From positions 78,629 to 142,628 of the forward strand of contig CAYPDT010000001.1 in assembly GCA_964409615.1 (NCBI GenBank): a stretch of 64,000 bases of DNA, read 5' to 3'. How positions within the stretch are numbered: position 1 is the stretch's first letter; each line of letters begins with the position of its first letter. The notes below the pieces were generated by a model that saw only the letters and a program-made list of their open reading frames with translations, searched no databases and was not told where the DNA came from. Origin of the DNA: an uncultured Candidatus Saccharibacteria bacterium. GTDB taxonomy: Bacteria > Patescibacteriota > Saccharimonadia > Saccharimonadales > AWTP1-31. Below are positions 5,334 through 39,044 of this stretch, piece by piece. A program made the translations under genes and the position numbers.

Positions 5334-5519
5334 TTGCTTCGCAAAAGACTCAGTTCAAGTTTGGGTGACCAAGAAAAAGACCCCAGTCAAGCTGAGGTAC
5401 TTTTCTTGGTGGCTCCTCCCAGGGAAAACTGGAACGACATCTTCTCTGGAATCACTAGATTGAGCGATGAACTGGAGAAGCTCGGCATCGACATAGTTAT
5501 GGAGACCGACAATGCGTAG
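5334..5519 (+). CDS. Small hypothetical ORF overlapping the start of the PLD-like gene
   Basis: 61-aa ORF with a TTG start. Its end overlaps the ATG of the next gene by 8 nt. No motif; coding status uncertain. Confidence 0.25.
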   Translation: MLRKRLSSSLGDQEKDPSQAEVLFLVAPPRENWNDIFSGITRLSDELEKLGIDIVMETDNA

Positions 5520-6018
5520 ATTCCTCTTCCTGTTAGGTCAACGAGCCTACGATAACTCCGCTCTGCTTAGTTCGCAATTACTCAATGAGGAAGCTTTTTA
5601 TGACGTGTTCCTACATGATATTCGTCGAGCTAGAAGAAGTGTAATCATCGAAAGTCCATTCATCACCACGAAACGTTTACTTTTGTTGCACTATCCACTT
5701 AAAAGAGCACGCAAGCGGGGCGTACATATTGTTATAAACACCCGCGATCCAGATACACATAGAGGTTCAATGCGCCAACAAGCACGAGATGGCGTCGCTT
5801 GGTTACAACATCTAGGAGTAACGGTGATCTATACAGGTAATCTGCACCGCAAGCTAGCAATCATCGACCACCGCATATTGTATGAGGGCAGTCTGAATAT
5901 CTTGTCGCAGTCAGATAGTTGTGAAATGATGCGCCGTACCGACTCGGCAGAGCTTGTACGGCAAATGATACGCTTTACCAACCTCCGAAAGTGGTATAAG
6001 ATTGCAAATCATGAGTGA
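5512..6018 (+). CDS. Single-HKD phospholipase D / Nuc-like nuclease family protein (copy 1)
   Basis: 168 aa. HKD motif HRKLAIIDHRILYEGSLN in a Nuc-sized protein. Roughly 45% identical by eye to the ORF at 47536..48033. Confidence 0.75.
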   Translation: MRRFLFLLGQRAYDNSALLSSQLLNEEAFYDVFLHDIRRARRSVIIESPFITTKRLLLLHYPLKRARKRGVHIVINTRDPDTHRGSMRQQARDGVAWLQHLGVTVIYTGNLHRKLAIIDHRILYEGSLNILSQSDSCEMMRRTDSAELVRQMIRFTNLRKWYKIANHE

Positions 6019-7175: not shown

Positions 7176-8465
<1,290 letters not shown>

Positions 8466-8480
8466 TGAGGTTGTACTCGT

Positions 8481-8915
8481 TTACTGAATAATTACTTGGC
8501 TGGCGGTTATCTTGTCGTCTGCGTCTTTGCCGATAACAATGACCTTGGCGCCAACTTGAATTGCTTCTCGGTTAGAACCGCCCGCACCTTTCTTGGTGAT
8601 TACAACTGAATCGGTGAATGTAGCGGTTTCAATCTTGTCTTTATTATTCTTAACGGTGATAGTCTTATCTGTTACCGCTTCGACAGTACCGACAATACTC
8701 CAATAGTTTCTATTCTCTTCAAGTTGGTCGGCCACTAAAGCGGTAGACTTCTTGGTTGTATCTTTGGTAGTGTTATCTGACTTTTTTGACTGTCTGCCAA
8801 GAAAGAAGGCGCCCACTAGGGCTAAGACAATGATAAAAATTGTCCCAATGAGAATAAATCGCGTTTTATTTGCAGGCTTTAAATTTGTCGTCACATTTGT
8901 ATTTGAATCTTGCAT
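8481..8915 (-). CDS. Hypothetical membrane-anchored small protein
   Basis: 144 aa. N-terminal TM (FILIGTIFIIVLALVGAFFLG) followed by a beta-rich domain. No family assigned. Confidence 0.5.
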   Translation of the reverse strand: MQDSNTNVTTNLKPANKTRFILIGTIFIIVLALVGAFFLGRQSKKSDNTTKDTTKKSTALVADQLEENRNYWSIVGTVEAVTDKTITVKNNKDKIETATFTDSVVITKKGAGGSNREAIQVGAKVIVIGKDADDKITASQVIIQ

Positions 8916-8945
8916 GACTCTCCTGGGAATTACACCTTAAATCTG

Positions 8946-8974
8946 TTGCTATTAAACTGTCATATCACTACAAT
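8946..8974 (+). promoter_or_regulatory. Candidate sigma70-type promoter of the giant kinase gene
   Basis: TTGCTA (8946-8951), 17-nt spacer, TACAAT (8969-8974). The ATG at 8989 is only 14 nt downstream and has no Shine-Dalgarno, implying a very short or leaderless 5' end. Confidence 0.35.
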
Positions 8975-8988
8975 TATATATAACACTT

Positions 8989-11900
8989 ATGGATAAAAAG
9001 AGGAAGTTTTTGCCGAGGGTGCTGAAGGCCACGTTGCAAAGTCGACGAGGTGCTATTCGTGTTGCCACTACGACTGTATTCGCAGCTTCTCTGGCCGTTC
9101 TTTTTAACTCCATTGATGCCTTAGGCTCAGCAACAACTCGTTTAAATAGATTACTGCTTGACCACAGTACTTTTGTGACGGCCATTGCTTTTATAGCAGT
9201 ACTCGTCCTGGCTGTGGTGCTGTATCTCCATATTGACTACCAGGCACATAAGCGGCCGCTTACAACCGAAGATAAGACGGTGGACTACAGTTTTCGGAAT
9301 CATGTGCGCGTTGTTACTATCCCCCTAATGGTCATGAAGTGGCGGCAATTTGCGGTAAGTTGTTTAGCACTCGGATTAGCTTTCGTGACGTATACCGGTA
9401 TATCAGTGAGCATGAGTAAAGGTACATTGGCAGCACCCGGTTCGCTATCCGTTACGATTAACCAGAAGGCCGGGACGGCAGATCCTAACCCATCATATAC
9501 TTCCGTATACACGGTGGTATTCTCTGTGCCAATAAGTAAGACAAGCTTTACTTCGAATGATATTACTTTCAGTGGAACTGCCGTAAGTCCTCAAATACAG
9601 TCAATTACCGAATCGGCACCTTTCAACAAGACGACGTATGAGGTTAGGGTGCAGGTAGCGGGTTCGGGCACGATAGTCCCCTCTATTGCCGCTGAGTCAG
9701 TCTCTGCAGAGAACTTTGATAACGGCACCAACCAGGCTTCGACATCAACTGATAACAGCGTTTCATATAATGGCACCTATACTCCAAATCAGTTCGTTAC
9801 TAAATGGAAAACTGATAACCCGGGCCTCACAGCTTCGAATCAGCTTGTAATCTACGCACAGCCTGGCTACACCTACAACCACACCATTAACTGGGGGGAT
9901 GGCAACATCCAGTCAGGGATAACAAATAGCCCAACGCATACCTACGCATCGCCTGGAACGTACACGGTTACTATTACTGGCCTGTTTCCTAAGTTCACCG
10001 CAGGGCCAGATGGACAGAAATTACTTAGTGTTGAACAGTGGGGCAACAATCCGTGGGAATCTCTTAATGGTGGGTTTAAGGATGCTACCAACTTTACGCT
10101 TGTCAATCTTGATGCACCAAACTTAAGTAATACGCTAGATTTCCATGAGTTGTTTATGAACGCTACTAACTTTAATACCAGTATTAATCACTGGGATGTG
10201 AGTCATGTAGTGGGTATGGCTGGAGTGTTTCGAGGTGCCACTTCATTCAATCAGCCCTTAAATAATTGGGACACTAGTAGCGCGACTAATATGAGCGCCA
10301 TTTTTGATGGCGCCACTTCCTTCAACCAGCCCTTAAATAATTGGGACGTGAGCCATGTTGGCAGTGGTTCGCTGCTATTCAGGGGTGCCACTTCCTTCAA
10401 CCAGCCCTTAAATAATTGGGACACGAGCGACTGGCTTGATATGGGCTCTACGTTTCTTAATGCCACTTCCTTCAACCAGCCCTTAAATCGATGGAATATT
10501 CGTAATGTTGCAGACGCCAATGGCGTCCTTTCCAATACCGGCATGTCGACGGTCAACTATGATATTACCTTGAAGGGCTGGGATACGCAGACGCTGCAAA
10601 GTGGCGTGACCATGGATGCCACTGGCATTACGTACTGTAGTGCTGAGTCACAAAGAGCAAATATTATCTCAACCTATGGTTGGACGATTAATGACGCAGG
10701 CAAGAACTGTACCACCCAGCAACCTTTTATCACTACCTGGAAAACCGACAACACGGGGGACATAAACGATCGAACTATAACTATCCCTACGCTGTTTGGC
10801 GGCTATAACTACGACGTAGATTGGGGGGATGGAAATACGAGCATTGGACAGACAGGGAATGCAAGTCACACCTATGCTATTCCAGGCACATATACTGTTT
10901 CGATATCGGGCACCTTCCCTCATCTGTACATGCAAAATTACGGTGGGGCGGAAAAGCTTTTGACTGTTGAGCAGTGGGGGACGAATTCGTGGCGGTCGAT
11001 GAGGAGCGCATTTTTGGGAGCCTCAAACCTAACTATTCAAGCGACCGATAAACCAGATCTTTCCAATGTCACTGACATGAACTACATGTTTTACTATGCC
11101 TCGTCCTTCAACCAACCCATTGAAGACTGGGATGTGAGTGGCATCACAAGTATGAACGGATTGTTTACAGGCGCTACATCCTTCAACCAGCCGCTCAATA
11201 CATGGGATGTAAGCAATGTGATAGATATGCATAATTTATTCGTAGGTGCCTCATCCTTCAACCAACCCATTGAAGATTGGGATGTCAGCAATGCGGGCGA
11301 TATGGGCGGTATGTTCTTTAACGCACTATCCTTCAACCAATCCCTGAATACATGGGATGTTAGTAATGCCGTGAATATGGCTGGTATGTTCACAGGTTCG
11401 CTTTTCAACCAACCACTCAATAGTTGGAATGTTAGTAGTGTTACTCATATGCAGAGTATGTTCTTCTACACACCGTTCAACCAACCCCTAAATAGTTGGA
11501 ACGTTAGTAATGTGACTACTATGGCCAATATGCTCTCCTACACACCGTTTAACCAACCACTCAATAGTTGGAATGTAGCTAACGTAACGAATATGAGTGG
11601 TATGTTCGATGGCGCCACTGCTTTCAATAGATCACTGGGTAGTTGGCATGTAGATAATGTCACGAATATGGTGGGCATGTTTGGTTTTGGTTCCGGACTC
11701 TCTGTTACGAATTACGACGCTACACTTACAGGTTGGAGTAATCGTCCGCTTCGTAATAATGTCACCTTTGATGCCGGCACCAGTCAATATTGTAATGCCG
11801 AAGCGCAGAGGCAAAGCATTATAACCTCACGTAGTTGGACTATTAATGATTCAGGTGAAGCCCCAGGGTGTGTGCCGACAGATCCAGATGATTTTATCAC

Positions 11901-14900
11901 TACCTGGAAAACCGATAACCCTGGCGACAGTGCAAGCAACCAGATAATGATACCAACAATTTCTGGACCATATACTTACGACTATGATGTCGACTGGGGT
12001 GACAACACGACGAGTGCTAACGTGACTACCTCTATAACACATACCTACGCCAGCCCAGGAACGTATACTGTAAAAATAAGTGGTGCATTTCCGAGCATAC
12101 AGTTTTGCGATATGGCAGAGGCGCAAAAATTGCTAACTATTGAACAGTGGGGAACTGGTGCATGGGAGCGGCTAGACTGTGCGTTCAGCGGAGCAACTAA
12201 CTTAACAATTCCTGCTACTGACGCACCAAATCTTTCATTTGTGACAGATATCTCATATATGTTCAGGGGTGCTGTAAGTCTCAATTCAGATCTCGAGTCC
12301 TGGGATGTAAGCCATATTAATCTGATGGGTGGAATGTTCTCCTACGCTACAGCATTCAACCAACCCCTGGATGGGTGGAATGTCGAAAACGTAACCCATA
12401 TGGGTGGAATGTTTGCGCATGCCTCTTCTTTTAACCAACCATTAAATGGGTGGAACACCGACAGCGTAGTTAATATGGGTGGAATGTTCTCCTACGCTAC
12501 AGCATTCAACCAAGATATTGGTGGATGGACCACTGACAATGTGACAAACATGGGTAGCATGTTCTCCTACGCTACAGCATTCAACCAGCCACTCAACAAC
12601 TGGGAGGTAGGCAACGTTACGGACATGGGTAGCATGTTTGGTGGTGCTACAAGCTTTGATCAGAATATTGGTGGATGGAGCGTGAGCAATCTTACAAATG
12701 CAGTTTCTATGTTCCAGGGTGCTAGTGCCTTCAACCAACCCCTGGATGGCTGGACTACACCCAGCCTCACAGACGTGTGGGGTATGTTTATGAACGCCAC
12801 GTCGTTTAACCAAGATATAAACGATTGGGATGTTACTCATGTCATAGCAACTAATAATCTATTTTATGGTGCCACGGCATTCAACCAACCCCTCAACAAC
12901 TGGGAGGTGGGTAACGTTACGGACATGGGGAGTATGTTTAGCGGTGCCACAAGCTTTGATCAGTCATTGGGCGACTGGGATGTTAGTGGCGCTGTAAACT
13001 TGGGGCACATGTTCTCTCTAGGTTCTGGCCTTTCCACCGTAAACTACGATGCAACACTCATTGGCTGGAATGCACTTGCTTTGCAGAATGACGTAAATTT
13101 TGGAGCTGGTACAAGTAGGTACTGTACTGCTGAGGCTGAGCGGCAAAATATCATAGATACGTTTGACTGGAATATTGTCGACCAAGGAAACGCCTGTGCC
13201 CCACAACGTCCCTTGATTATGAAGGTTAAAACTGATAATCCAGGCGACAGTGGCAACAATGAGTTCGAGGTGACATATGGTAATGACAGTGATACCTACG
13301 ACTTTGACGTAGATTGCGACAACGATGGCACGCCAGAGTTCACGCATCAAACGTATTCAGTCGTTTGTAGCTACCCGTCTGCAGGTGAATATGAAGTTGC
13401 GGTTTCTGGGGCATTTCCACACATGGCGCTCAACTCAGGAAATGGACACGATGCAGAGAAGATACTGGAAGTTCAGCAATGGGGTGATATTGAATGGCAT
13501 AGTATGGAAGGTATGTTCTGGGGAGCTTCAAATGTGCAAGTCACAGCGACGGACAGTCCAAATCTACAGGCTGTAACTAATATGAGCGCTATGTTCTACG
13601 AGGCAACCACGTTCAACGCAAATATAGGGTCATGGGACACTAGTAACGTCACAAATATGGCAATGATGTTCTACGGAGCCACCGCCTTCAACCAGTCCCT
13701 TAACGGTTGGAGTACTGGCAACGTTACAAATATGGGTGAAATGTTCAAAGAGGCTTCGAGTTTTAACGCAAATATTAGCAGTTGGAACACTGGTAATGTG
13801 ACCAATATGTTTGGTATGTTCAGTGACGGATCGATATTCAATCAGGATATTAGCGGCTGGAACACTGGTAATGTCACGGACATGTCAGAACTATTCTTTA
13901 GTAACAGCCATTTTAACCAGCCAATTGGGCAGTGGCAGACGGGTAGCGTGACTGCTATGCGAAGAATGTTTGGTAGCGCTGCGAACTTTAACCAAGACAT
14001 TGGGGGTTGGAATGTAGGTAATGTTACCAATATGTCCGAGATGTTCAACATGGCCACTACGTTTAACCAGCCGTTGGGTAGTTGGAACACCGGTAGTGTT
14101 ACGGATATGTCTTCAATGTTTACATTTGCAACTGTATTCAGCCAACCGATTAATTCTTGGAATGTAGGTAACGTCACAAATATGGCAATGATGTTTAATA
14201 GTGCACCTCAGTTTAATCAGCCATTGAGTAATTGGAATATTGATCAGGTGACCACTATGCAGTCAATGTTCGGTAGCTTTGTAGATTACATGGAATTTTA
14301 CTATGGCCCAGTTGCTGATTGGGATCAGAATTTTAAGACCATGGTTTTTGATGAGCTTTCACAGATTGTTGGTCATACTATGAACGAGCAGAATTATCAG
14401 ACTCTCGAATCAGGTATGTCGGCAACAAACTACGATGCTACGCTCATTGGTTGGAGTGCTCGCTCCTTGCAAGATGACGTCATTTTTGATGCCGGTTATA
14501 GCCGCTACTGCACTGCAGAGGTTGAGCGTCAAAGCATCATAGACACATTCGGGTGGACTATCAACGACCAAGGCAAGGAATGCCAACAATACTTATCGAC
14601 CGACATGAGTCTGGCCACCACATTAACAAATTCAGGAGCGATTAAGGTGGGAGATACGTTGAACTACACGCTCACCGTGCGAAATCATGGTCCAAACAAT
14701 GGTGACACTAATCATGATGCCTCAGTACTTACATTACTCCCAGCTACTGTGGAGTTTGTGTCTGCGGCCGGAACATCACCAGTGAACTGCACGGTGGTGT
14801 TAGCTGAAGACATAGGTATACCTGCTTTTGTGCAGCACTATTCTGGGCTGCAAGTAGTGTTCTGTATTTGGACACCAACACCACTCCTTACTCCTGGCGA

Positions 14901-16857
14901 TACGACAACTTTGAATATACAGACAAAACTTAAGTCGACCGTCCAAAATGGTAATGAAGTAAAGCTTCGTTCTTTGCTGTATTGGTATAACGATATCGAT
15001 AGGAGTGCTCTTGAGGATGCTCTTGATGACGGCGAAGATGTCTATCAACTTACGGGTAATAATATATCGAACTATGCGTTTACTTACACTACAACACCAG
15101 ACGTTCCTGATGTCCCGAATCCGCAGACACCAACAAATCCTAATCCCCCTGGAACACCTATACGACCAAGACCGACTACGCTTAGCCCCACAGTTAAAGG
15201 TGTGTGTGAGGCGCTAACGGTGCGTACCGTTGGTAGTGATCCATACGCTGTCCCACTGGCGGTAGTCTATACGGTAGAAACGACCGGTGATACTACGGGT
15301 ACAACGTACGTATATGATTTTGGGGATGGAACTACTCAGGAGTCGTCAGATAAGGTAGTCGAACACACCTACGACAAGTGGGGAACATATAGCGCAGCGG
15401 TGCGGCTAAAAACAGGTAACGGCCTAGCAGAGCAAAACCCACTTTGTTCTGTAAGGCTCGGCGTTGGCCAAGTAGTGGCAAAGGAATCAGTAGGTGTATT
15501 TGGAGGGGCATTGGCTTCCGTTCGTACGCACAATTTGCTTACACGAACCATTGCGCTACTGCCATTTGTGTTCACCTCACTTCTGCTTCTAATTGCCATG
15601 ATCTACCTGTGGCTGGCTTATCGAGATAAGAAACAACAAGATAAACTCAAGGAGTTGCTGGAGCGAAATAGAAAGACGCGCCAAAGTATTTCAAACTTTG
15701 TAGCGATTTCGTCGCACTACCTTAATACACCATTGGCTACTATGCAGGGTGCATTAGAAATACTTACCGCCGCCAAGCAAAAAGGAACTCTGACATCGAT
15801 AACGACCTACACGCTAGATGGTATACGAAAACAATTACAAGGACTGAGCAGCTATGTCCAAGGCATAGTCGGGCAGAATGAATCGGTGCTGCAGGCTGAT
15901 ACGAAGCAGGTGGGCTCTGTAGGCTTCGTAGAACTCGCTAAGACCAAGCGTATTTGGATGCCGTTAGCCATAACGGGTCTAATGGTAGCCATTGTTGATA
16001 TCGGTCTTACCTTGTCTGGTGGCTACAAGCTTGCAGAACTTCGACTAGCTAATGCCGTGGCGTTCTTTGCGCTGGCAGGTATTTCAATCATTGTAGCTGG
16101 CATTATGCGTTCTCGCAGTGAAGCGCTGCGGGCTGGAATTGAGCAAGAGCTGGCAAGTGAAAAAACACTACTGAGTCAAAAACAAGCACTTATCCATGAT
16201 ATCGCCGGACAACTTGAAAGCTACCAGCATCTACTCATTCAGGAGAGCGCTACTGTTCAACAACTCCCCGAAGGGCGACTATTCTTTAATGGCCTTAAAG
16301 ACTTTGGAAAACTGACCCAGTCGCTTATTTCCGGTGCGCGTTTTGCTACTTTGTCAGCATCACCTCAGTCGATATTGGCTACTGAGATCATCACCTCAGT
16401 AGTTACGTCACTTGATCCTGTCGCTAAGCAGAAGAATGTGACTATCCAATCTACTATAGAACCGGAAGTAACTATGCAGCTGGAAGGCAGTGAGGCGCGC
16501 TTCTTGCTCACAGCATTCCTGGACAATGCTATTAAGTTTAGTCCAGAAAACGCAAAGGTTGAGCTGCAGGCACGAAGACACGGCAAGCATGATATCTTCA
16601 CCATACGTGACGGAGGTCCTGGTATTGACCAGGCGATAGTCTCGCAGCTTTCACGGCCATTCACGAGAGGAACTGACACTATAACCTACAATAACCAAGG
16701 ACTCGGACTAGGACTCTATAACGCTAAAATACTTATAGAAAAACTTGGTGGATCGCTCGAATTAGCGGCAAGCACTCATGGGGCAGGCACGGTAGCAACT
16801 ATTACGCTTCCACATACAAATAGTCTACCTACGAGCATGGTGTATGCTCCAGCGTAG
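8989..16857 (+). CDS. Giant membrane sensor histidine kinase with a BspA/DUF285-type LRR, PKD and DUF11 ectodomain
   Basis: 2,622 uninterrupted codons. Three N-terminal TMs, then four super-modules of FNQPLxxWDVSxVTxMxxMF repeats with PKD-like DWGDG...HTYAxPGTYTV heads. Then DUF11 (YTLTVRNHGPNNGD), a Pro-rich linker, PKD and a TM. Kinase core: H-box SSHYLNTPL (His codon 15715-15717), two TMs, HATPase_c boxes LDNAIKFS, DGGPGID, GLGLGLYNAK. Confidence 0.85.
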   Translation: MDKKRKFLPRVLKATLQSRRGAIRVATTTVFAASLAVLFNSIDALGSATTRLNRLLLDHSTFVTAIAFIAVLVLAVVLYLHIDYQAHKRPLTTEDKTVDYSFRNHVRVVTIPLMVMKWRQFAVSCLALGLAFVTYTGISVSMSKGTLAAPGSLSVTINQKAGTADPNPSYTSVYTVVFSVPISKTSFTSNDITFSGTAVSPQIQSITESAPFNKTTYEVRVQVAGSGTIVPSIAAESVSAENFDNGTNQASTSTDNSVSYNGTYTPNQFVTKWKTDNPGLTASNQLVIYAQPGYTYNHTINWGDGNIQSGITNSPTHTYASPGTYTVTITGLFPKFTAGPDGQKLLSVEQWGNNPWESLNGGFKDATNFTLVNLDAPNLSNTLDFHELFMNATNFNTSINHWDVSHVVGMAGVFRGATSFNQPLNNWDTSSATNMSAIFDGATSFNQPLNNWDVSHVGSGSLLFRGATSFNQPLNNWDTSDWLDMGSTFLNATSFNQPLNRWNIRNVADANGVLSNTGMSTVNYDITLKGWDTQTLQSGVTMDATGITYCSAESQRANIISTYGWTINDAGKNCTTQQPFITTWKTDNTGDINDRTITIPTLFGGYNYDVDWGDGNTSIGQTGNASHTYAIPGTYTVSISGTFPHLYMQNYGGAEKLLTVEQWGTNSWRSMRSAFLGASNLTIQATDKPDLSNVTDMNYMFYYASSFNQPIEDWDVSGITSMNGLFTGATSFNQPLNTWDVSNVIDMHNLFVGASSFNQPIEDWDVSNAGDMGGMFFNALSFNQSLNTWDVSNAVNMAGMFTGSLFNQPLNSWNVSSVTHMQSMFFYTPFNQPLNSWNVSNVTTMANMLSYTPFNQPLNSWNVANVTNMSGMFDGATAFNRSLGSWHVDNVTNMVGMFGFGSGLSVTNYDATLTGWSNRPLRNNVTFDAGTSQYCNAEAQRQSIITSRSWTINDSGEAPGCVPTDPDDFITTWKTDNPGDSASNQIMIPTISGPYTYDYDVDWGDNTTSANVTTSITHTYASPGTYTVKISGAFPSIQFCDMAEAQKLLTIEQWGTGAWERLDCAFSGATNLTIPATDAPNLSFVTDISYMFRGAVSLNSDLESWDVSHINLMGGMFSYATAFNQPLDGWNVENVTHMGGMFAHASSFNQPLNGWNTDSVVNMGGMFSYATAFNQDIGGWTTDNVTNMGSMFSYATAFNQPLNNWEVGNVTDMGSMFGGATSFDQNIGGWSVSNLTNAVSMFQGASAFNQPLDGWTTPSLTDVWGMFMNATSFNQDINDWDVTHVIATNNLFYGATAFNQPLNNWEVGNVTDMGSMFSGATSFDQSLGDWDVSGAVNLGHMFSLGSGLSTVNYDATLIGWNALALQNDVNFGAGTSRYCTAEAERQNIIDTFDWNIVDQGNACAPQRPLIMKVKTDNPGDSGNNEFEVTYGNDSDTYDFDVDCDNDGTPEFTHQTYSVVCSYPSAGEYEVAVSGAFPHMALNSGNGHDAEKILEVQQWGDIEWHSMEGMFWGASNVQVTATDSPNLQAVTNMSAMFYEATTFNANIGSWDTSNVTNMAMMFYGATAFNQSLNGWSTGNVTNMGEMFKEASSFNANISSWNTGNVTNMFGMFSDGSIFNQDISGWNTGNVTDMSELFFSNSHFNQPIGQWQTGSVTAMRRMFGSAANFNQDIGGWNVGNVTNMSEMFNMATTFNQPLGSWNTGSVTDMSSMFTFATVFSQPINSWNVGNVTNMAMMFNSAPQFNQPLSNWNIDQVTTMQSMFGSFVDYMEFYYGPVADWDQNFKTMVFDELSQIVGHTMNEQNYQTLESGMSATNYDATLIGWSARSLQDDVIFDAGYSRYCTAEVERQSIIDTFGWTINDQGKECQQYLSTDMSLATTLTNSGAIKVGDTLNYTLTVRNHGPNNGDTNHDASVLTLLPATVEFVSAAGTSPVNCTVVLAEDIGIPAFVQHYSGLQVVFCIWTPTPLLTPGDTTTLNIQTKLKSTVQNGNEVKLRSLLYWYNDIDRSALEDALDDGEDVYQLTGNNISNYAFTYTTTPDVPDVPNPQTPTNPNPPGTPIRPRPTTLSPTVKGVCEALTVRTVGSDPYAVPLAVVYTVETTGDTTGTTYVYDFGDGTTQESSDKVVEHTYDKWGTYSAAVRLKTGNGLAEQNPLCSVRLGVGQVVAKESVGVFGGALASVRTHNLLTRTIALLPFVFTSLLLLIAMIYLWLAYRDKKQQDKLKELLERNRKTRQSISNFVAISSHYLNTPLATMQGALEILTAAKQKGTLTSITTYTLDGIRKQLQGLSSYVQGIVGQNESVLQADTKQVGSVGFVELAKTKRIWMPLAITGLMVAIVDIGLTLSGGYKLAELRLANAVAFFALAGISIIVAGIMRSRSEALRAGIEQELASEKTLLSQKQALIHDIAGQLESYQHLLIQESATVQQLPEGRLFFNGLKDFGKLTQSLISGARFATLSASPQSILATEIITSVVTSLDPVAKQKNVTIQSTIEPEVTMQLEGSEARFLLTAFLDNAIKFSPENAKVELQARRHGKHDIFTIRDGGPGIDQAIVSQLSRPFTRGTDTITYNNQGLGLGLYNAKILIEKLGGSLELAASTHGAGTVATITLPHTNSLPTSMVYAPA
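9793..14586 (+). repeat. Four tandem intragenic super-modules (about 9793-10725, 10726-11892, 11893-13213, 13214-14586) built from 66-75-nt LRR units
   Basis: Each module starts with F[IV]TxWKTDNPG and ends with NYDxTLxGW...YC.AE..R..II....W.I.D.G..C. By my count of FN(Q)-x-W cores there are 5+8+10+9 repeats. Nucleotide-identical stretches occur, for example 10312-10347 = 10387-10422 (36 nt) and 12325-12363 = 12475-12513 (39 nt). Confidence 0.85.
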
Positions 16858-16917
16858 GTTTGTAGCAAATAAACTACTTGTCTAAAGTAACCATAACCGT
16901 TACAGTTGGCAGTAACG

Positions 16918-17652
16918 ATGAGACAATCCAAATTGCGACTGTACTGTTTTTCGCCGCCTGTAATGTTGGCGACCTTTATTATCGAAATCGGACTATTCCT
17001 CTGGGTACTTGGTAAGTGGGGTGCAAAGAGTACGGCTAACAGGCTGGTGCTGGCAATATTATTCTTCCTGGCCTTGTTCCAGTTGGCTGAATATAACGTT
17101 TGTGGACGGTTTAATATAGACGCATTGACGTGGTCTCGCATCGGCTTTGTGTCCATTACGATGCTGCCGCCGCTTGGTATGTATCTAGTCTACGTCCTGG
17201 CTGGTAAGAAGGAGCGCGTATTAGCGTGGTTGAGCTATCTCATGGGTGCGGTGTTTATTTACATATTTGCGTTCAGTAGTGTGGCCTTTAACTCGCATGT
17301 CTGTGCTGGTAACTATGCCATCTTCCAGCTGAATGCAGATATGCACCTTGGTGGTCTGTACTTTATCTACTACTACGGCTGGTTATTCATGGCCATGGCT
17401 TTTGCGGCGCTATATGCCAGAACTGTCAAGAAAGCCCAGGCCAAGGCACTGTGGTATGTCATTGCAGGGTACTGCTTCTTCCTTATACCTACAACAGTAG
17501 TTAACATGGTCAAGCCCGAGACGATGAGCGGCATACCGAGTGTTATGTGTGGCTTTGCAGTTACCTGGGCACTGGTACTCGTGTTTGGTATTCTGCCCGT
17601 GACAAAAGAGATGTCCTCTGGCCCGAGTAAGAAAACAGTCAAGAAAAAGTAG
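16918..17652 (+). CDS. Polytopic membrane protein (about 7 predicted TM helices), function unknown
   Basis: ORF 16906..17652 (TTG); ATG at 16918 preferred. Almost entirely hydrophobic helices. Lies 48-60 nt downstream of the kinase gene on the same strand. Confidence 0.6.
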   Translation: MRQSKLRLYCFSPPVMLATFIIEIGLFLWVLGKWGAKSTANRLVLAILFFLALFQLAEYNVCGRFNIDALTWSRIGFVSITMLPPLGMYLVYVLAGKKERVLAWLSYLMGAVFIYIFAFSSVAFNSHVCAGNYAIFQLNADMHLGGLYFIYYYGWLFMAMAFAALYARTVKKAQAKALWYVIAGYCFFLIPTTVVNMVKPETMSGIPSVMCGFAVTWALVLVFGILPVTKEMSSGPSKKTVKKK

Positions 17653-17657
17653 CGTAC

Positions 17658-17685
17658 TTGACATTGCCGCCAATGCGGTTATGAT
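17658..17685 (+). promoter_or_regulatory. Strong sigma70-type promoter
   Basis: Consensus TTGACA (17658-17663), 16-nt spacer, TATGAT (17680-17685). Starts 6 nt after the stop of the upstream gene. Confidence 0.5.
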
Positions 17686-17691
17686 TAGAAT

Positions 17692-17803
17692 AATCGTGCG
17701 CTCTAGCGGCGTTTGCAAAACAAACATTGACCAAAACAAAAAGCACCCGCCGCGGGTGGGCGCGCACGACAGTGAGAACACCTCTTTTACGGAGGTGTTT
17801 TTG
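17692..17803 (+). ncRNA. Candidate structured small RNA or 5'-leader (about 110 nt), bounded by its own promoter and intrinsic terminator
   Basis: Long-range stem CGTGCGC (17694-17700) / GCGCACG (17764-17770) encloses a GC hairpin CACCCG-ccg-CGGGTG. Terminator ACACCTC-ttttacg-GAGGTGT plus TTTTTG lies at 17778-17803. No family recognised. Confidence 0.4.
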
Positions 17804-17866
17804 TTATTCGTACTCTTTACGCTTATGGTATACTTTTGGTAATACAATCTAAAACAAAAAAGATAT

Positions 17867-19426
17867 ATGGCACAAACAAAAAGAACTGCAAAGCGCCCGA
17901 CCGGAAGTAAGTCTAAAAGCACGCCCAACCCAATTTTGAAACAATTCACTAATCTGACTATGCGGAGCAAAGTCCTCGTTGGAGCTCTGCTGTTTGCATT
18001 AGTGGGCGGCGCTGTTGTAGCCTTTTCTAGTGCGGCAGATCCTAATACTGTGTCGGTGGACATTATTAAGACGCAGTATGCTTATCCGTCTAATGCTCTC
18101 TTTGTGTCTCCTGGCGGCAATGACTGTACTACTACTTCTTGCGGTACGCAGAATGCGCCGTATAAGACACTTAAATTCGCTGTCTCTAAGGCGGTTTCTG
18201 GTAATACCATTGTGATGCGTGAGGGAATTTACCGTGAAGCTCTTGGGAGCATGACCAAATCCCTGATGATACAGGCATATCCTAATGAAAAGGTCTGGCT
18301 GGATGGCTCAGATGTCATTCCACAAAATGAATGGATTCAAGATGGAACCAGCTGGCGCAAGGATAACTGGGTCGCAGCTAACGCAATGTGTCCTAAGAAG
18401 ACGACGCCAGAAGATCCAAGTAATCCAGATAATGTCGTTAATTATAGCTGTTACACCACTGACCCACAGGGCTCTAAATGGCTAGTCAATGCGGCAAATC
18501 CTGCATCTTTCTTGCCTGACATGTTCTTTGTAGACGGCATACAACTTAAGCAAGTGCTCACGCGTAACGAAGTTAAAGCTGGGACATTCTATATTAACCG
18601 AAATACTTCGCAGGTCTTTATCGGGGACAACCCAAGTGGTAAGCAGGTAGAAGGTTCAACAAGACAGCAGGCTATACAGTATTACAAAGCGGGCACTGCA
18701 GGTAGCAAGCTCCGCGGTATTGGTGTCCGTAAGTTTGCTTCTAAGATTGTCTTTACCTCTCAGCCAGGGCAGATTGAAGTGAGCAATGGCGCTAAAGGCA
18801 TTGAATTCGATAACATGGTCTTTACGCAGTCTGCCGCCAATGGATTGTTTGTAACTGGCTCAGCAGCAGATAAATCAACAGGGCTGGTGGTACGGAATAG
18901 TATCTTTGCAAACAATGGTACTTCTGGTTTGTCAGGCAACCAAGTCGACTCCATGACCGTCGAGAACAATATCTTCTATAACAACAATACCGAAAAAGCT
19001 GAGTGGGAGGGGGATTACGGATCCTTTGCCGGTTCTAAGATGGCTGTTATGACTAATTCAACAGTCAAGAACAACTTATTCCAGGGTAACTACGGTTCAG
19101 GCTTCTGGTGCGACTTAAGCTGCCAGAATAATGCTATCATCGGCAATATGTCACGAGATAACCTGGTCAATGGCATATACTACGAGATCAGCTTTGATGG
19201 CATCATTGCCTCTAACGTTACCTACGGCAATGGTGCGGCAGGACTTAAGGCCATAAAACAACATAATGAATGGCGAGGCTACAGAAGATACTGCCAGAGC
19301 GATGAACGAGACAATCCGCGAGTAAGCTTCGCTGAAAAGCAGGATGGTTGCTGGCTTGAATCGCTTCATAAACCAGTTGCTTGTCTTGAAGCCAATAGTG
19401 CTCCAAATATAGTTAGCAGACAATAA
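17867..19426 (+). CDS. Secreted or anchored right-handed parallel beta-helix repeat protein, probably 3'-truncated near 19250
   Basis: N-terminal TM (VLVGALLFALVGGAVVAF). Beta-helix repeats NSIFANNGTSG, NNIFYNNN, NNLFQGNYGSGFWCD, IIGNMSRDNLVNGIYYE. The last roughly 56 codons are antisense to hydrophobic MFS helices and look non-native. Confidence 0.6.
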   Translation: MAQTKRTAKRPTGSKSKSTPNPILKQFTNLTMRSKVLVGALLFALVGGAVVAFSSAADPNTVSVDIIKTQYAYPSNALFVSPGGNDCTTTSCGTQNAPYKTLKFAVSKAVSGNTIVMREGIYREALGSMTKSLMIQAYPNEKVWLDGSDVIPQNEWIQDGTSWRKDNWVAANAMCPKKTTPEDPSNPDNVVNYSCYTTDPQGSKWLVNAANPASFLPDMFFVDGIQLKQVLTRNEVKAGTFYINRNTSQVFIGDNPSGKQVEGSTRQQAIQYYKAGTAGSKLRGIGVRKFASKIVFTSQPGQIEVSNGAKGIEFDNMVFTQSAANGLFVTGSAADKSTGLVVRNSIFANNGTSGLSGNQVDSMTVENNIFYNNNTEKAEWEGDYGSFAGSKMAVMTNSTVKNNLFQGNYGSGFWCDLSCQNNAIIGNMSRDNLVNGIYYEISFDGIIASNVTYGNGAAGLKAIKQHNEWRGYRRYCQSDERDNPRVSFAEKQDGCWLESLHKPVACLEANSAPNIVSRQ

Positions 19427-22839: not shown

Positions 22840-22980
22840 ATGGGTAGAACTAAGGGCGCAACCAACAAAGAAATACCGCTTCCAGAAGTCTATACATTAT
22901 CGCCGGAGCAACGCTTGCACGTTATAGCTGACTTGCTGATCGAACTCATATGCGAGGAAGAGGTATGCAGCCAGGAGTAG
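22840..22980 (+). CDS. Small element protein (46 aa, MGRTKGATNK...), homolog of 32505..32699
   Basis: Manually translated: MGRTKGATNKEIPLPEVYTLSPEQRLHVIADLLIELICEEEVCSQE. Aligns with MARTKGSKNKQTTALSEFVYMPSEERLKLIANLVIDRVIEDQ in element B. Overlaps the recombinase start in both elements. Not in the ORF track. Confidence 0.45.
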   Translation: MGRTKGATNKEIPLPEVYTLSPEQRLHVIADLLIELICEEEVCSQE

Positions 22981-34469: not shown

Positions 34470-37400
34470 TCAATCTAAGCCTGTTGTTGGCTTGATGATA
34501 TAGCTGTTCTGGCCGCCCACCTCGCCTTTTAGTCGTGGGAGACTAATCTTCACGCTCGTACCAGCTCCTACTTCACTGTCTATGGATATGGTCCCGCCGC
34601 TCTGTTCAATGACATGCTTGGCTACAAACATGCTCAAACCAAGTCCTTGGTGATCAAACGTCTGGGTGTCCGTACCACGCTGTAGTGGCTCAAATAGTCC
34701 ATTAAGTACTTCGGGGCTGAGGCCTGGACCATTGTCGCTCACCTTAATGGACACCTTATTTCTCTGGCTTTGCGCCCCTACAACTGCCTTGCTTCCTGCA
34801 GGGCTGTACTCTATTGCATTGCCAATAACGGCACTGAGAATGTAGTCGAGCTGGTCAGATTGAAGCGGCACTAACAGACCGTCCGCCACATTAGACTGTA
34901 ACGTACTGCCCTTTTCTTGTGCTAATCTTTGAACCGCAGGTTCAATAGATTGTTTGTAGTAACTTGCTGCGTCCACAGAAGCTGCTGGATTAATCTGCGT
35001 CAGACGTTGGTAACTCGTAAGTTCCTGAGTCAGCTTGTGCAACATGGTTAGTCCGTTGACAAGTAGATGAGCGTCAGGAAGCTGTGCCATACCTTCAGTC
35101 CCTTGACTCAACTGGTCGGTGTGGTGCTGCAAAGCAGGCGCTACTGACTGCAGGAGCTCTTCTTTTTGCTTGGTCACCATCTGAACATTTGCTAATTCTC
35201 GGTCGATGTCAGCATGTAAGACTTTGGATCGCTTATGGTAGACGTAGTAAATTCCAATAAGCAGCGCACTGAAAATGGCTAGGAGTATCAAGTTAACGAG
35301 GCGGGCACCGCGCTTCTCGTAGGCACCTGTCAACAGCAGGGTCAGGTCAATAGCGGCGATAGCCAGGGCAATCCCAAGCAAGCTAGCCCACATCGTACGT
35401 GCCTTAGTGAGCAGTTTTTGGTCAGAATCCGCGAAGCTTGATTGACCACCCTGTGCCAGTGAGGCTTCCACTGAACCTTCGAAACCTTGCACCGTTGAAC
35501 GCAGTGCAATGAGTTTCTGCCCAAAGTTGGCAAGGAATATACTATCCAGTGTATGCTTGCTGGTCATGAGTTCATGGGCACCCTGCAAAACTGCTAACGG
35601 CGTATTAAGGTAGTGGGTGATGATCTCAAGGAATTGCTGAGTCATGCTGGCTCGTTGTTTAGCTTTTGCGATGGCCTGCTGAGCATCTCGTGTAAAGCGG
35701 TACTCTCGCCATGCTTGCAGTACATAAGCAAGCGCAAGCAACAGGAGTAAGGATATGAATAGGTAGTAATCTGCTCCAGGCTTTCGAAGCATGTCACTAC
35801 CTGATGAGCTCTTTTTGGTAGTCGCTCGATCTCTAGTCTGCCGGTACAAATTCTTAGGTGTTGGTATGTTACTTTTGTCTAGATTAGTATTTTGAGAGCT
35901 CGTTGGCGCACGAGGAACGGAGCTGATACTAACTGTTACGGCACAAGTATTTGCGACAGTTGTTGTACCCTGACTGGTTTTAATCCGCGCGGTTGCTTTG
36001 TATGTCCCATTCTTTATATACCTATGATTGGCGGCGGGCGCAGATGACTCAATACTGCTACCGTCTCCAAAATCAAATAAGTAGGACTGAATATTAGTGT
36101 TACTGACTTGTCCCTTTGCCGTGAAGCTAACATCTAGTGGTGCCGTTCGTAGTGCGTTGCTAGTGTCTGCCAGTGCTACGAGGCGAGTGCAGGCATAGCT
36201 GGTCGTTGGCTGAGTAGGCGGAGGTACACTGGGTGTATGATAGGTGGCACGCGCTGCATTATTGATAGGCAATAAGGTCAGATCTTGATGCATGGCATAG
36301 GCGTTTTCAAACTGCTGCAAAGAATCTGATTCGTTTGCATCATCCAAATAATATCCCCCGAAGATAGCACCTTCGGCAGTAGTAATGGTCGCCGTCAGGG
36401 TTATATCGAACTCTATACTTTGATCAACTGCCAGTGGAATTGAATCATCTGCAGCAACACACGCAATCAACCCATTGTTAGGATAAAGATCATTGAAGTA
36501 TGGGTCATCAAAATCAGAGCCAGTTCCGATGTATTGACACCCGACCTGACTCGTATTTGTGTTGGAAACATAGGTGAATCCAGCTGGCATAAAGTAGTAT
36601 AGTCCACCACCAAAGAATGAATTATATGGCCCATAATTTGTAATCGTAATGTGCGACGATACCGTTGCTCCACTCTGTATAGGTGATGGTCCTGGCGCAG
36701 TAATAGCCAGTCCGAAATCAGTCTGAATCACGGTATTAATACGGATGTTATGGTTGGAGCCAAGCGTAAGGCCGCCACCGAGCGGCCATCGAGCGCTATC
36801 TAGCGATAGATCTTGTATATTTTGGTACTTTATACTGCCACCATTAAGAGACAGGAAATCGGGACTTACGTAGGACCAATCTAGATCAGTCGTATTGTCG
36901 CCTGGCGACACTGTGTAGGTGAACGTCAGAACTGCTGTCCCCGATCCTCCGGTATACTGAGCGGTCAGTCCGTCACGCAAGTTCAGTTGGGGCGCGCCAG
37001 TAACATAGACTGGGGTGGCAAACGTTAACTTTAGGGCAATTACCGTACCCACACCATATGTTCCATCGGGGGTTGATGTATCAATGGTTGGCACCTCACA
37101 CTTCTCGCCTGCATCGATGATGACCCAGTTGTAGTCGGCTGTAAGCGTTTGATGAACTGTAATAGCCTGGCAATACGCTACACTAGGTGCATCAAGTGGC
37201 ACATTCGACTGAACGCCATGTGCTAGCCATCCGATAAGAGATTGATCGTAGCTCTGCAAAGAAAAACCTTCTGAGCCGATCAGCATTCCTTCCATAGTTG
37301 TGACATTGCCAACATCCCAGGTATCAAGTGACTGGTCAAAGGCGCTGGCATTCTGGAACATACCTCCCATATTAGTAACATGGCTCACATCCCAGCCGTT

Positions 37401-37520
37401 GAGGGATTGGTTGAAGGATGTAGCTCCACTGAACATTCTATTCATGTTGGTAACATGGCTCACATCCCAGTCGCCCAGCGGCTGGTCGAAGGCGCTGGAA
37501 TTCATGAACATACCATCCAT
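34470..37520 (-). CDS. Sensor histidine kinase paralog, C-terminal fragment (3 LRR units, cap, Ig-like, DUF11, PKD, TM, H-box, TM hairpin, HATPase_c)
   Basis: 1,016 aa. AFDQPLGDWDVSHVTNM repeats. H-box ITHYLNTPLAVLQGAHEL. HATPase_c boxes IGNAIEYS, DNGPGLS, GLGLSMFVAKHV. Same frame as 37536..39044, with only a TAA plus 5 sense codons between them. Confidence 0.8.
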   Translation of the reverse strand: MDGMFMNSSAFDQPLGDWDVSHVTNMNRMFSGATSFNQSLNGWDVSHVTNMGGMFQNASAFDQSLDTWDVGNVTTMEGMLIGSEGFSLQSYDQSLIGWLAHGVQSNVPLDAPSVAYCQAITVHQTLTADYNWVIIDAGEKCEVPTIDTSTPDGTYGVGTVIALKLTFATPVYVTGAPQLNLRDGLTAQYTGGSGTAVLTFTYTVSPGDNTTDLDWSYVSPDFLSLNGGSIKYQNIQDLSLDSARWPLGGGLTLGSNHNIRINTVIQTDFGLAITAPGPSPIQSGATVSSHITITNYGPYNSFFGGGLYYFMPAGFTYVSNTNTSQVGCQYIGTGSDFDDPYFNDLYPNNGLIACVAADDSIPLAVDQSIEFDITLTATITTAEGAIFGGYYLDDANESDSLQQFENAYAMHQDLTLLPINNAARATYHTPSVPPPTQPTTSYACTRLVALADTSNALRTAPLDVSFTAKGQVSNTNIQSYLFDFGDGSSIESSAPAANHRYIKNGTYKATARIKTSQGTTTVANTCAVTVSISSVPRAPTSSQNTNLDKSNIPTPKNLYRQTRDRATTKKSSSGSDMLRKPGADYYLFISLLLLLALAYVLQAWREYRFTRDAQQAIAKAKQRASMTQQFLEIITHYLNTPLAVLQGAHELMTSKHTLDSIFLANFGQKLIALRSTVQGFEGSVEASLAQGGQSSFADSDQKLLTKARTMWASLLGIALAIAAIDLTLLLTGAYEKRGARLVNLILLAIFSALLIGIYYVYHKRSKVLHADIDRELANVQMVTKQKEELLQSVAPALQHHTDQLSQGTEGMAQLPDAHLLVNGLTMLHKLTQELTSYQRLTQINPAASVDAASYYKQSIEPAVQRLAQEKGSTLQSNVADGLLVPLQSDQLDYILSAVIGNAIEYSPAGSKAVVGAQSQRNKVSIKVSDNGPGLSPEVLNGLFEPLQRGTDTQTFDHQGLGLSMFVAKHVIEQSGGTISIDSEVGAGTSVKISLPRLKGEVGGQNSYIIKPTTGLD

Positions 37521-38025
37521 GCCATAGTATGAATATTAGAGTCCACCGGTACCAACAACACTTGAAGTGTCCCAACTATTGAGGGGCTGGTTGAAGGATG
37601 TAGCTCCACTGAACATTAGAGCCATGTTTGTAACACTGCCTGTATTCCAACTATTGAGGGGCTGGTTGAAGGACAAAGCTCCGGAGAACATACTCTCCAT
37701 TGAGAGTACTGCATCAGTGTCCCAACTATTGAGGGGCTGGTTGAAGGATGTAGCTCCACTGAACATTAGAGCCATGTTTGTAACACTGCCTGTATTCCAA
37801 CTATTGAGGGGTTGATTAAATGTTGGGGTGTTCAAAAACATTCTTGACATATTTGTAACACTGCCTGTATTCCAACTATTGAGGGGCTGGTTGAAGGATG
37901 TAGCCCCCCAGAACATCCCTCTCATGTCGGTAACGTTGCTGGCGTCCCAGTCGCCCAGCGGATAGTCAAAGGCGCTGGCATTCTGGAACATACCTCCCAT
38001 ATTAGTAACATGGCTCACATCCCAG
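37335..38025 (-). repeat. 61-nt perfect direct repeat (37335-37395 = 37965-38025) flanking the in-frame stop
   Basis: GTCAAAGGCGCTGGCATTCTGGAACATACCTCCCATATTAGTAACATGGCTCACATCCCAG occurs twice, 630 nt apart, one copy on each side of the TAA at 37536-37538. Confidence 0.9.
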
Positions 38026-39044
38026 GAGTTTAGAGGCTGATTAAAACTCGATGCCCCAGAGAACATACCATCCATAGCAGTTACACTACTCACATCCCAA
38101 CTGTCGAGGGGTTGATTAAAAGCAGAAGCATCCTGAAACATGTTGTTCGTATAGGTAACATGGCTCACATCCCAGGAGTTTAGAGGCTGATTCACTTTAC
38201 TGGCTCCATGAAACATATTGTCCATGTAAGTAACATTGGACAAATCGGGTGTATCTGTTGCGGTGATCGTAAGGTTGGAAGCATTTTCGAACGAAGACGC
38301 CATGCTCGCCCACTGATTCGTTCCCCATTGTTCTACGGTCAGTAGTTCCGGAGCATTTGCCGGACTCAGAAGCATGCGAGGGAATGTCCCAGTTATCTTA
38401 ACGGTATACACTCCTGTGGATGCATACGTATGATATGCAGCATCAGTAACACCCATATCCACTGCGCTATCCCCCCAATCAATATCGTAGTTGTAACCGC
38501 CCAAACTATAGGAGGGTATGGAAAGTGCCTTGCTAGCATTTTGAATATTCCAAGTAGTCACAAACTCATCAGGGGCATAAGCGTAGGTTCGACTTAATTG
38601 CACGGCCGCCGCAGTTATCAATAAGGTGAGCAGGACTCCAGTATACCCCGACCATAGCAATAATCTTTTCTTGTAGTACAGTGCTCTAGGAATAAACACC
38701 GCCTTGGCATGATGCAGCAACCCGTATCGAACCCTCGGGTCTTCCACTATGAGTGGTCTTTGGTGCCGCTTGTAGTCGAGCTGGTAGCAAATACTCAGCA
38801 CTATTACTAACAGGAGAGCTATGCATCCTAGAACAGCAAGTACAGCTAGGTAATCAATCTTGTTACCGGTAAACAGTAGTCTCCAGATGTCCCGACTTAA
38901 CGAAGAGGTGGAGCGGAGTGACAATGATATGAAAATCATGAGCAACAATGACCCGGCTACAATCATGAAATCTCTGCTATGATTGGTCAGACGGGTTCTG
39001 TGACTATAAAATCGGGTACTAATTCTGTTTCTGGTCTTACGCAT
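37536..39044 (-). CDS. Sensor histidine kinase paralog, N-terminal fragment (3 TMs, PKD-like head, 9 DUF285 LRR units), ending at an in-frame TAA
   Basis: 502 aa. N-terminus is homologous to the giant kinase (CYQLDYKRHQRPLIVEDPRVRY versus YLHIDYQAHKRPLTTEDKTVDY). FVTTWN...DIDWGDS...HTYASTGVYTVKITG. Stop TAA is at 37536-37538 (minus strand). Confidence 0.8.
   Translation of the reverse strand: MRKTRNRISTRFYSHRTRLTNHSRDFMIVAGSLLLMIFISLSLRSTSSLSRDIWRLLFTGNKIDYLAVLAVLGCIALLLVIVLSICYQLDYKRHQRPLIVEDPRVRYGLLHHAKAVFIPRALYYKKRLLLWSGYTGVLLTLLITAAAVQLSRTYAYAPDEFVTTWNIQNASKALSIPSYSLGGYNYDIDWGDSAVDMGVTDAAYHTYASTGVYTVKITGTFPRMLLSPANAPELLTVEQWGTNQWASMASSFENASNLTITATDTPDLSNVTYMDNMFHGASKVNQPLNSWDVSHVTYTNNMFQDASAFNQPLDSWDVSSVTAMDGMFSGASSFNQPLNSWDVSHVTNMGGMFQNASAFDYPLGDWDASNVTDMRGMFWGATSFNQPLNSWNTGSVTNMSRMFLNTPTFNQPLNSWNTGSVTNMALMFSGATSFNQPLNSWDTDAVLSMESMFSGALSFNQPLNSWNTGSVTNMALMFSGATSFNQPLNSWDTSSVVGTGGL
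37566..37811 (-). repeat. 96-nt perfect tandem duplication (37566-37661 = 37716-37811; 150-nt period, two LRR units)
   Basis: Base-by-base comparison of the two stretches shows them identical. First mismatches are at 37565/37715 and 37662/37812. Confidence 0.9.

Follow-up and report, generated by a model that had tools for sequence, protein, structure and literature searches.

HisKA-type (class I) transmembrane (TM) kinases such as Thermotoga HK853, PhoR, EnvZ and CpxA place a sensor between TM helices and join a helical hairpin (DHp), bearing an H-box of the SHELRTPL type, to a CA (HATPase_c) domain with N, G1, F and G2 boxes. The intramembrane-sensing kinases BceS and LiaS have almost no extracellular domain and carry a short TM hairpin directly upstream of DHp-CA; the Caulobacter pseudokinase DivL, a cytoplasmic PAS protein, has Tyr at the His position. 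The DUF285/PARCEL ('BspA family leucine-rich repeat (LRR)') surface proteins of Mycoplasma, Listeria and other bacteria are lipoproteins or wall-anchored and have no signalling domain. Bacteroides hybrid two-component sensors (HTCS) use a periplasmic beta-propeller (Reg_prop/Y_Y_Y), a canonical DHp-CA and their own receiver and DNA-binding domains, and plant LRR receptor kinases (LRR-RLKs) are Ser/Thr kinases. Here we analysed a giant gene that encodes a DUF285/PARCEL ectodomain and a histidine-kinase core in one open reading frame (ORF). It lies in a 64-kb stretch of DNA (the window; 64,000 nucleotides, contig CAYPDT010000001.1, positions 78,629 to 142,628) from an uncultured Candidatus Saccharibacteria bacterium. 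The protein encoded by this ORF (8989..16857) is referred to as W1; related loci carry L numbers and representative proteins P numbers.

W1 shares with the HisKA-type kinases the sensor between TM helices, the DHp-CA fold (profile and fold searches), the four CA boxes and an equivalent H-box, SHYLNTPL. Unlike them, it has two DHp-like hairpins split by a TM hairpin, with the His on the distal one only, Tyr instead of an acidic residue at +1, six TM helices, an ectodomain 5-20 times the usual size and no adjacent response regulator. As judged from the sequence, W1 fails two tested defining HisKA features, the acidic +1 residue and a His-bearing DHp adjoining CA. DivL, the best fold match, resembles the W1 DHp2-CA part in having no phospho-acceptor His; however, it has no second His-bearing DHp and is not a giant surface receptor. 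BceS and LiaS have their TM hairpin at the same place as W1 but keep the His in the CA-proximal DHp. The units of 24-25 amino acids (aa), of the FNQxLxxWDVSxVTxMxxMF type, are common to W1 and the DUF285/PARCEL surface proteins, but in W1 the arrays come as head-array-cap super-modules fused to a kinase. HTCS and plant LRR-RLKs offer an analogy only: a large outer binding domain made of repeats is linked across the membrane to a kinase, and where HTCS have beta-propellers, relatives of W1 use NHL propellers, but the signalling parts are not homologous to W1 beyond the generic histidine-kinase fold.

We are confident that W1 is a real gene and a member of a giant receptor-kinase family. With roughly even confidence, we read it as a six-TM cell-surface receptor whose adhesin-like, exchangeable ectodomain is bracketed by two constant parts, and we infer that it signals.

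Domain architecture of W1

The ORF listing and a stop-free, one-frame translation confirmed the uninterrupted ORF of 2,622 codons described in the original prediction, which a model had made from the sequence alone. The gene and its parts outside the kinase core are listed below.

8989..16857, + strand: giant receptor-kinase gene, a single ORF of 2,622 codons including the stop codon
8989..9423, + strand: N-terminal constant module, three predicted TM helices and a conserved cytoplasmic TM2-TM3 loop (hydropathy)
9436..9792, + strand: Ig-like region, aa 150-268, no Pfam match, conserved in 8 family representatives
9793..10725, + strand: super-module 1, beta-sandwich head, 5 PARCEL/DUF285 units and Cys-pair cap
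10726..11892, + strand: super-module 2, head, 8 units and cap (AlphaFold2 model, LRR-type matches)
11893..13212, + strand: super-module 3, head, 9-10 units and cap; its core, nt 11917-13041, is a cassette unlike the orthologue
13213..14592, + strand: super-module 4, variant head LIMKVKTDN, 9 units, an insert of ~45 aa and cap
14602..14961, + strand: DUF11 (CLIPPER/TIGR01451-type), aa 1872-1991 (PF01345, 29.7 bits)
15094..15180, + strand: Pro-rich linker, aa 2036-2064 (sequence reading; a Pro/Thr-rich linker stands at the same place in L001)
15166..15483, + strand: membrane-proximal PKD, aa 2060-2165, approximate limits (best PKD_4/PKD stretch aa 2094-2149); overlaps the linker part by 15 nt

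Searches with hidden Markov models (HMMs) found DUF285, TIGR02167, PKD, DUF11 and HATPase_c, as had been expected, and HisKA slightly under its cut-off. In Pfam, DUF285 (PF03382) scored 1074.7 bits over 12 stretches (cut-off 25), PKD_4 and PKD matched 4 and 3 stretches, and HATPase_c matched aa 2506-2610 with 63.5 bits; the HisKA match at aa 2235-2291 reached 25.5 bits (cut-off 26.9). In NCBIfam, the PARCEL repeat TIGR02167 scored 268 bits (cut-off 30), the Mbov_0838 PARCEL lipoprotein model was likewise matched, and numerous sensor-kinase models matched the last ~150 aa, each under its cut-off. The order DUF11, Pro-rich linker, PKD and TM was upheld by Pfam, hydropathy and sequence reading.

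Hydropathy placed six TM segments at aa 21-39, 62-80, 122-140, 2187-2205, 2322-2340 and 2355-2373. The first three are the N-terminal helices already recognised in the original prediction; it had counted four in all, with a single one before the kinase core, and had missed those at aa 2322-2340 and 2355-2373. Cytoplasmic faces are flanked by positive residues (sequence reading). C125, in TM3, is the sole Cys outside the ectodomain, and the kinase module is Cys-free; ectodomain Cys residues are mostly paired, 17-26 residues apart, with one pair per cap. An extracytoplasmic ectodomain, predicted from TM topology, the positive-inside distribution and the confinement of Cys to the ectodomain, fits these data; the ectodomain would thus lie outside the cell, with both of its ends held at the membrane. 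Starting translation further downstream, at M114/M116, would leave a single signal-anchor; this was ruled out, as TM1, TM2 and the loop are conserved in a second copy of the gene in the window (paralogue 2) and in at least 24 relatives. Promoter and terminator scans gave no signal above chance.

The heads F[IV]T[TK]WKTDN were found at aa 269, 580 and 969, and the caps NYD[AI]TLxGW at aa 523, 908, 1352 and 1814. The F[IV]TxWKTDNPG head that had been assigned to every super-module thus holds for three of them, and the fourth has the variant LIMKVKTDN at aa 1409; the conserved Cys-containing cap is present in all four. A unit HMM counted 5, 8, 9 (plus 1 weak) and 9 full units of 24-25 aa, 31 in total, in agreement with the earlier count of 5, 8, 10 and 9. 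The AlphaFold2 (AF2) model of super-module 2 (pLDDT 88.7, pTM 0.84) showed the expected head, LRR-like solenoid and cap: a 7-strand beta-sandwich, a solenoid in which every 24-25 residues contribute one short strand, and two helices. Its fold neighbours in the PDB were LRR ectodomains (LRRTM2, Nogo receptor, TLRs), which matched weakly (best E 6e-3), and a PDB sequence search gave no solved structure related by sequence to the DUF285/PARCEL super-modules. On sequence grounds, the ectodomain of W1 is a genuine DUF285/PARCEL array.

Organisation of the kinase core

The core was modelled with AF2 over aa 2180-2622, based on 22 diverse family members (pLDDT 81.4, pTM 0.74). Its parts are as follows.

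15547..15618, + strand: TM4, running into the H-box helix (hydropathy; a single helix in the AF2 model, module residues 2-85)
15619..15897, + strand: DHp1, His-bearing helical hairpin (HisKA match, aligns to the HK853 H-box)
15712..15735, + strand: H-box SHYLNTPL, with H2243 as the presumed phospho-acceptor
15946..16116, + strand: TM5-TM6 hairpin with conserved intramembrane polar residues including D2337 (hydropathy, AF2, family alignment)
16117..16347, + strand: DHp2, degenerate His-less hairpin joined directly to CA (collinear with HK853 DHp and CA; DHp-CA fold match)
16369..16818, + strand: CA (HATPase_c) domain (Pfam)
16519-16545, 16606-16626, 16654-16671 and 16699-16719, + strand: N, G1, F and G2 boxes of CA

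The order in W1 is TM4, DHp1 with the His, TM5, TM6, DHp2 without the His, and CA. In the first half of the modelled module, the long TM4/H-box helix is followed by a return helix (DHp1) and a disordered linker; in the second half, TM5 is followed by TM6 running into a 70-residue helix, a return helix (DHp2) and the alpha/beta domain of CA. The model thus combines a TM hairpin with two helical hairpins and a CA fold. In a profile search of the PDB sequences, the one DHp that HK853 has aligned to DHp1 and also to DHp2. In this alignment, FlsitsHYLnTPlailqg of DHp1 pairs with FIANISHELRTPLTVIKG of HK853, and DHp2 plus CA is collinear with HK853 residues 7-250. A fold search with the kinase-module model returned the DHp-CA cores of DivL, HK853, CpxA, ZraS and BceS, with DivL on top.

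Residue conservation was assessed in an alignment of 134 family sequences. The His of DHp1 is present in all 134, Thr+4 in 128, Pro+5 in 130 and Tyr+1 in 118. The canonical His column of DHp2 is G2407 in W1 and is unconserved in the family (Q/E/S/A/K/G/D). H2403 (LIHDIAG), considered as a phospho-acceptor, was rejected, being unconserved and off this column. The polar position in TM5 is N or D in 109 of the 134 sequences, and the start of TM6 (position 2356) is Q, E or H in 114. In CA, the 22 diverse members, which are only 23-34% identical, show no variation in the N, G1 and G2 residues; in W1, N2513, D2541, G2543, G2545, G2571 and G2573 are invariant or nearly so.

These results indicated that the core is a duplicated-DHp arrangement, in which the His survives on the distal, membrane-proximal hairpin and has been lost from the one next to CA. 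The H-box and HATPase_c of the original prediction are both present, with the H-box His and the N, G1, F and G2 boxes intact, but the simple order of TM, H-box and HATPase_c did not stand, as hydropathy, AF2 and the HK853 alignment place TM5, TM6 and the His-less DHp2 in between.

The wider family and its ectodomains

To define the family, we built a profile from W1 and ran an exhaustive search of 1.84 billion representative proteins. It gave 240 representatives with E<=1e-30, and a complete module of ~440 aa stood at the extreme C-terminus in 132 of the best 150. A word-indexed search with the C-terminal module had recovered only P0001, with generic kinases dominating the candidates, and one with a 22-sequence profile gave 2 members, all proteins <800 aa. 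The C-terminal module was also matched end to end by L002, L003, L004 and L012. The first two are labelled Candidatus Saccharibacteria and the other two 'bacterium'; the representatives carry no taxonomy. For the 132 with the complete module, the median length was 1,516 aa, 86 exceeded 1,000 aa, 38 exceeded 2,000 aa and the longest had 4,494 aa. Many short representatives are probably contig fragments. In P0001, for instance, the frame stays open up to the end of the contig, and a Pro/Thr-rich linker lies upstream.

DUF285 was found in 15 of the best 150 representatives, and Pfam confirmed five; one DUF285 member, P0191, lies on a 942-kb contig. Other representatives have ectodomains of NHL/SGL beta-propellers, fn3, GLUG or Big_7. 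The N-terminal TM2-loop-TM3 of W1 (aa 40-145) matched at least 24 representatives with E values of 1e-5 to 1e-16, including NHL/fn3 types, and is also carried by paralogue 2. Because this module is conserved whatever the ectodomain type, family members are constant at their two ends, in the N-terminal TM module and in the C-terminal kinase module, and have a cassette in between. The DUF285-kinase architecture, first taken as singular, recurs as one ectodomain variant of a populous family; the fusion is less singular than first thought, and the family, with its kinase core, is more unusual than had been recognised.

No Pfam or NCBIfam model covers the ~440-aa module as one unit, and the family is unnamed in both. 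Literature searches, incomplete in their coverage, gave no description of such a DUF285-kinase or of its family; nor did they give a characterised sensor kinase with a DUF285 input, in line with the original prediction. Public names for the relatives are 'surface protein' and 'uncharacterized repeat protein (TIGR01451 family)'. Look-ups for exact matches gave no record of W1, of the paralogue 2 fragment or of P0135.

At L001 (1-441, a Logan SRR14932698 contig), the gene call for P0001 begins within TM4, and the frame is open to the contig end. The open frame encodes the Pro/Thr-rich linker and a motif, NPPLNQWDFTSIWK, which also precedes the linker in L003 and L012 (GLUG/fn3-type). The motif appears to be a conserved membrane-proximal ectodomain element of a non-DUF285 subgroup.

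Two further relatives are an orthologue in another assembly and the second copy in the window:

34470..39044, - strand: paralogue 2, one super-module with 11 units, otherwise of the W1-type architecture, interrupted

The N-terminal half of paralogue 2 comprises 3 TM, head, 11 units, cap, Ig and a DUF11-like part, and the C-terminal half PKD, TM, ITHYLNTPLA, 2 TM, coil and HATPase_c. A single TAA at 37536-37538 interrupts it, where the intact, 62%-identical relative P0141 has Tyr. Stop recoding was rejected, as the TAA aligns to this Tyr; the TAA is a simple nonsense change or a sequencing error. The orthologue, in L002 (CALCZR010000007.1, a Candidatus Saccharibacteria metagenome-assembled genome), is independent, encodes 2,641 aa and has the same Pfam set; its kinase module is 97% identical to that of W1 (scan with one genome per species).

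Compared over stretches of 100 residues, W1 and the L002 orthologue share 96-100% identity throughout, apart from aa ~977-1400, where the identity is 42-51% and blastn gave no match. The breakpoints fall directly after the conserved head motif and directly before the cap motif. The super-module 3 array of L002 is at most 48% identical to any module in the window and, by this sequence comparison, is not derived from them. A chimeric assembly via the short conserved head and cap sequences keeps a small residual probability as the source of this difference. Exchange of whole ectodomains was seen between other members. P0160 (DUF285) and P0168 (NHL propeller) are 88% identical over the last 572 residues and unrelated upstream; P0141 (DUF285) and P0143 (NHL) are 44% identical over the N-terminal 190 aa and 63% over the C-terminal 464 aa, with unrelated middles. 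DUF285-bearing members are scattered over the kinase-module clusters. These comparisons support the view that the ectodomains behave as variable cassettes.

Proposed signalling, alternatives and genomic context

In the mechanism that we propose for W1 as a signalling receptor, the LRR solenoids would bind a partner-cell or surface ligand, or carry mechanical load. The signal would be relayed via TM3/TM4 and the polar TM5-TM6 hairpin and would alter the geometry of the two membrane-proximal helical hairpins. CA, tethered to the His-less DHp2, might then phosphorylate the invariant H2243 on DHp1, and the phosphoryl group would be passed to a response regulator encoded elsewhere in the genome. 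LRR arrays may be swapped by recombination at the conserved head and cap motifs, and whole ectodomain types across the family; such swapping would diversify recognition, with the signalling chassis retained.

Several points weigh against this mechanism. In HisKA kinases, the acidic residue after the His is the general base for autophosphorylation. In the family alignment, the +1 position is never Glu or Asp (Tyr 118, His 11, Phe 3, Asn 1, Gln 1; n = 134). This missing acidic residue calls for caution on kinase activity: to go by its residues, DHp1 could be poorly autophosphorylated, could serve as a phosphatase or phosphotransfer site, or could rely on another base. Thr or Asn at +4 after the His supports phosphatase activity. 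DHp1 is ~215 residues and a membrane hairpin away from CA, and we know of no characterised kinase with its His hairpin and CA separated in this way; the AF2 model of the kinase module is that of a monomer. In addition, tblastn with CheY, PhoB, OmpR, NarL and Spo0F as receiver queries found no receiver domain in the window or in L002, L003, L004, L012 and L082, and none lay within 8-10 kb of the gene at any family locus examined. As a positive control, nearly all ordinary kinase loci from the same scan had an adjacent regulator, including the Saccharibacteria locus L026. Pfam scans of the other large ORFs of the window gave no two-component parts. Because no response regulator was found in the window or beside the relatives, we can only infer that contact is coupled to phosphorylation. 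Finally, the nonsense codon in paralogue 2 implies that at least one gene copy can be dispensed with or is in decay.

A further-reaching version of the receptor reading is offered tentatively. W1 and its relatives might be host-recognition receptors of epibiotic Saccharibacteria: a lineage-specific family in which a recombination-shuffled, hypervariable adhesin ectodomain would set the partner-cell surface that is recognised, and a novel kinase core would turn contact into a phosphorylation signal. In this core, the His-less DHp-CA unit would phosphorylate the duplicated, membrane-proximal DHp of its own six-TM assembly, as an intramolecular pseudo-dimer, and an unlinked regulator would control attachment or feeding.

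The alternative that survives best, although we think it unlikely, is that W1 is mainly an adhesin or surface-coat protein whose kinase-like module is a membrane anchor or pseudokinase scaffold without phosphotransfer signalling. The public names of the relatives, the loss of the His from the CA-attached DHp (as in DivL, the top fold match), the lack of an acidic residue after H2243 and the lack of a nearby response regulator would all agree with this. However, catalytic residues would not be conserved in a mere anchor, and in this family the DHp1 His is kept in every sequence, Thr+4 and Pro+5 in 128-130 of 134, and the ATP-binding boxes are all invariant or nearly so across members only 23-34% identical.

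Somewhat less likely again is a BceS/LiaS-type sensor of intramembrane or envelope stress, acting through TM5-TM6 and the N-terminal TM module, with the ectodomain as a displayed passenger. The conserved polar residues in TM5 and at the start of TM6 would suit such a sensor, as would six constant TM helices combined with an ectodomain interchangeable among unrelated folds, and BceS is among the top fold matches. The BceS match, however, has a root-mean-square deviation of 28 Å and is hence a domain-level resemblance only. Moreover, the ectodomain is inserted covalently between TM3 and TM4, where sensor domains classically lie, and full-length members always keep >500-4,000 aa there, which suggests functional coupling.

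It is highly improbable that the fusion or the size of the gene is an assembly artefact, a repeat-induced chimera of a DUF285 surface-protein gene and a kinase gene: the gene is rich in repeats, it sits in an 11.7-kb block flanked by truncated genes, with synteny to L002 lost on both sides, and super-module 3 is unlike between the two assemblies, but the DNA repeats within the gene are only 60-89% identical and <=175 nt long, two independent assemblies are 96-98% identical in nucleotides over the ectodomain-kinase junction and the N-terminus (98.3% and 96.1% in two blocks that span both gene ends and the junctions), paralogue 2, P0191 on its 942-kb contig and >100 long representatives have this join as well, and the synteny breaks fall outside the gene. 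The misassembly that the original prediction had named as a possible refutation was thus not borne out; the L002 orthologue, paralogue 2 and the 15 DUF285-bearing representatives share the fusion.

The 11.7-kb block with the giant gene (7531-19253) is 96-98% identical to L002 1949-13728. At its left break, an NAD-dependent DNA ligase keeps the C-terminal 339 aa (7446-8465), compared with 676 aa in L002, and a DUF3800 fragment (7176-7595, -) overlaps the start of this truncated ligase ORF. At its right break, a beta-helix protein has 519 aa (17867-19426), compared with 870 aa in L002. This points to a transferred or recombined segment or to a chimeric contig. Small PLD-like (PLDc_2) proteins are encoded at 5512-6018 (+) and 47536-48033 (-); defence or mobile regions typically have the kind of DUF3800/PLD-like gene content seen at the left break.

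Neighbouring genes are not conserved among the family loci. A 248-aa polytopic membrane protein without a Pfam match (16906-17652, +) is encoded 49 nt downstream of the giant gene, with no terminator between; it has the same position in L002 (11381-12127) and is not found beside more distant family members. Downstream of the gene in L003 and L012 are a guanylate-kinase-like gene, HrcA and GrpE, and in L012 also DnaK. Beside paralogue 2, a cluster of large surface-type proteins is encoded: one of 981 aa with DUF11 (39805-42750, -) and one of 785 aa that combines lamin-tail (LTD) and CotH kinase domains (42740-45097, -). Two large serine recombinases (22950-24698, +; 30836-32533, -) each abut a tRNA gene (24637-24709; 30588-30661). 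Between them lie ~6 kb of orphan genes, including one for a WhiB-like protein (26353-27294), and just outside them a TrmB-like gene (21857-22645) and a Replic_Relax-like gene (33446-34213). This region, which has a kinase paralogue on either side, resembles an integrated element, or two of them. Elsewhere in the window, an 853-aa ORF (60915-63476, -) with a C-terminal N-acetylglucosaminidase (peptidoglycan hydrolase) domain is directly preceded by a c-di-GMP-II riboswitch (63551-63634, -; 57.3 bits, over the gathering score). This may be a second-messenger switch on a cell-wall-cutting enzyme in an epibiont.

Cultivated Saccharibacteria live attached to host bacteria, and to our knowledge their means of recognising a host, and of responding to it, are largely unexplained. 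In a genetics study and a perspective on Patescibacteria, none of the terms 'histidine kinase', 'two-component' and 'sensor kinase' is used. The annotation of these proteins by their repeats alone at present conceals their signalling domain. Current models of cis and trans autophosphorylation do not cover this conserved order, in which a membrane hairpin and a degenerate second DHp keep the His hairpin apart from the ATPase. Small genomes (one relative is on a 942-kb contig) spend up to 4,494 codons on a kinase-wired surface protein, whose binding part is swapped between near-identical strains. The giant receptor-kinase family provides concrete candidates for the sensing of host-cell contact.

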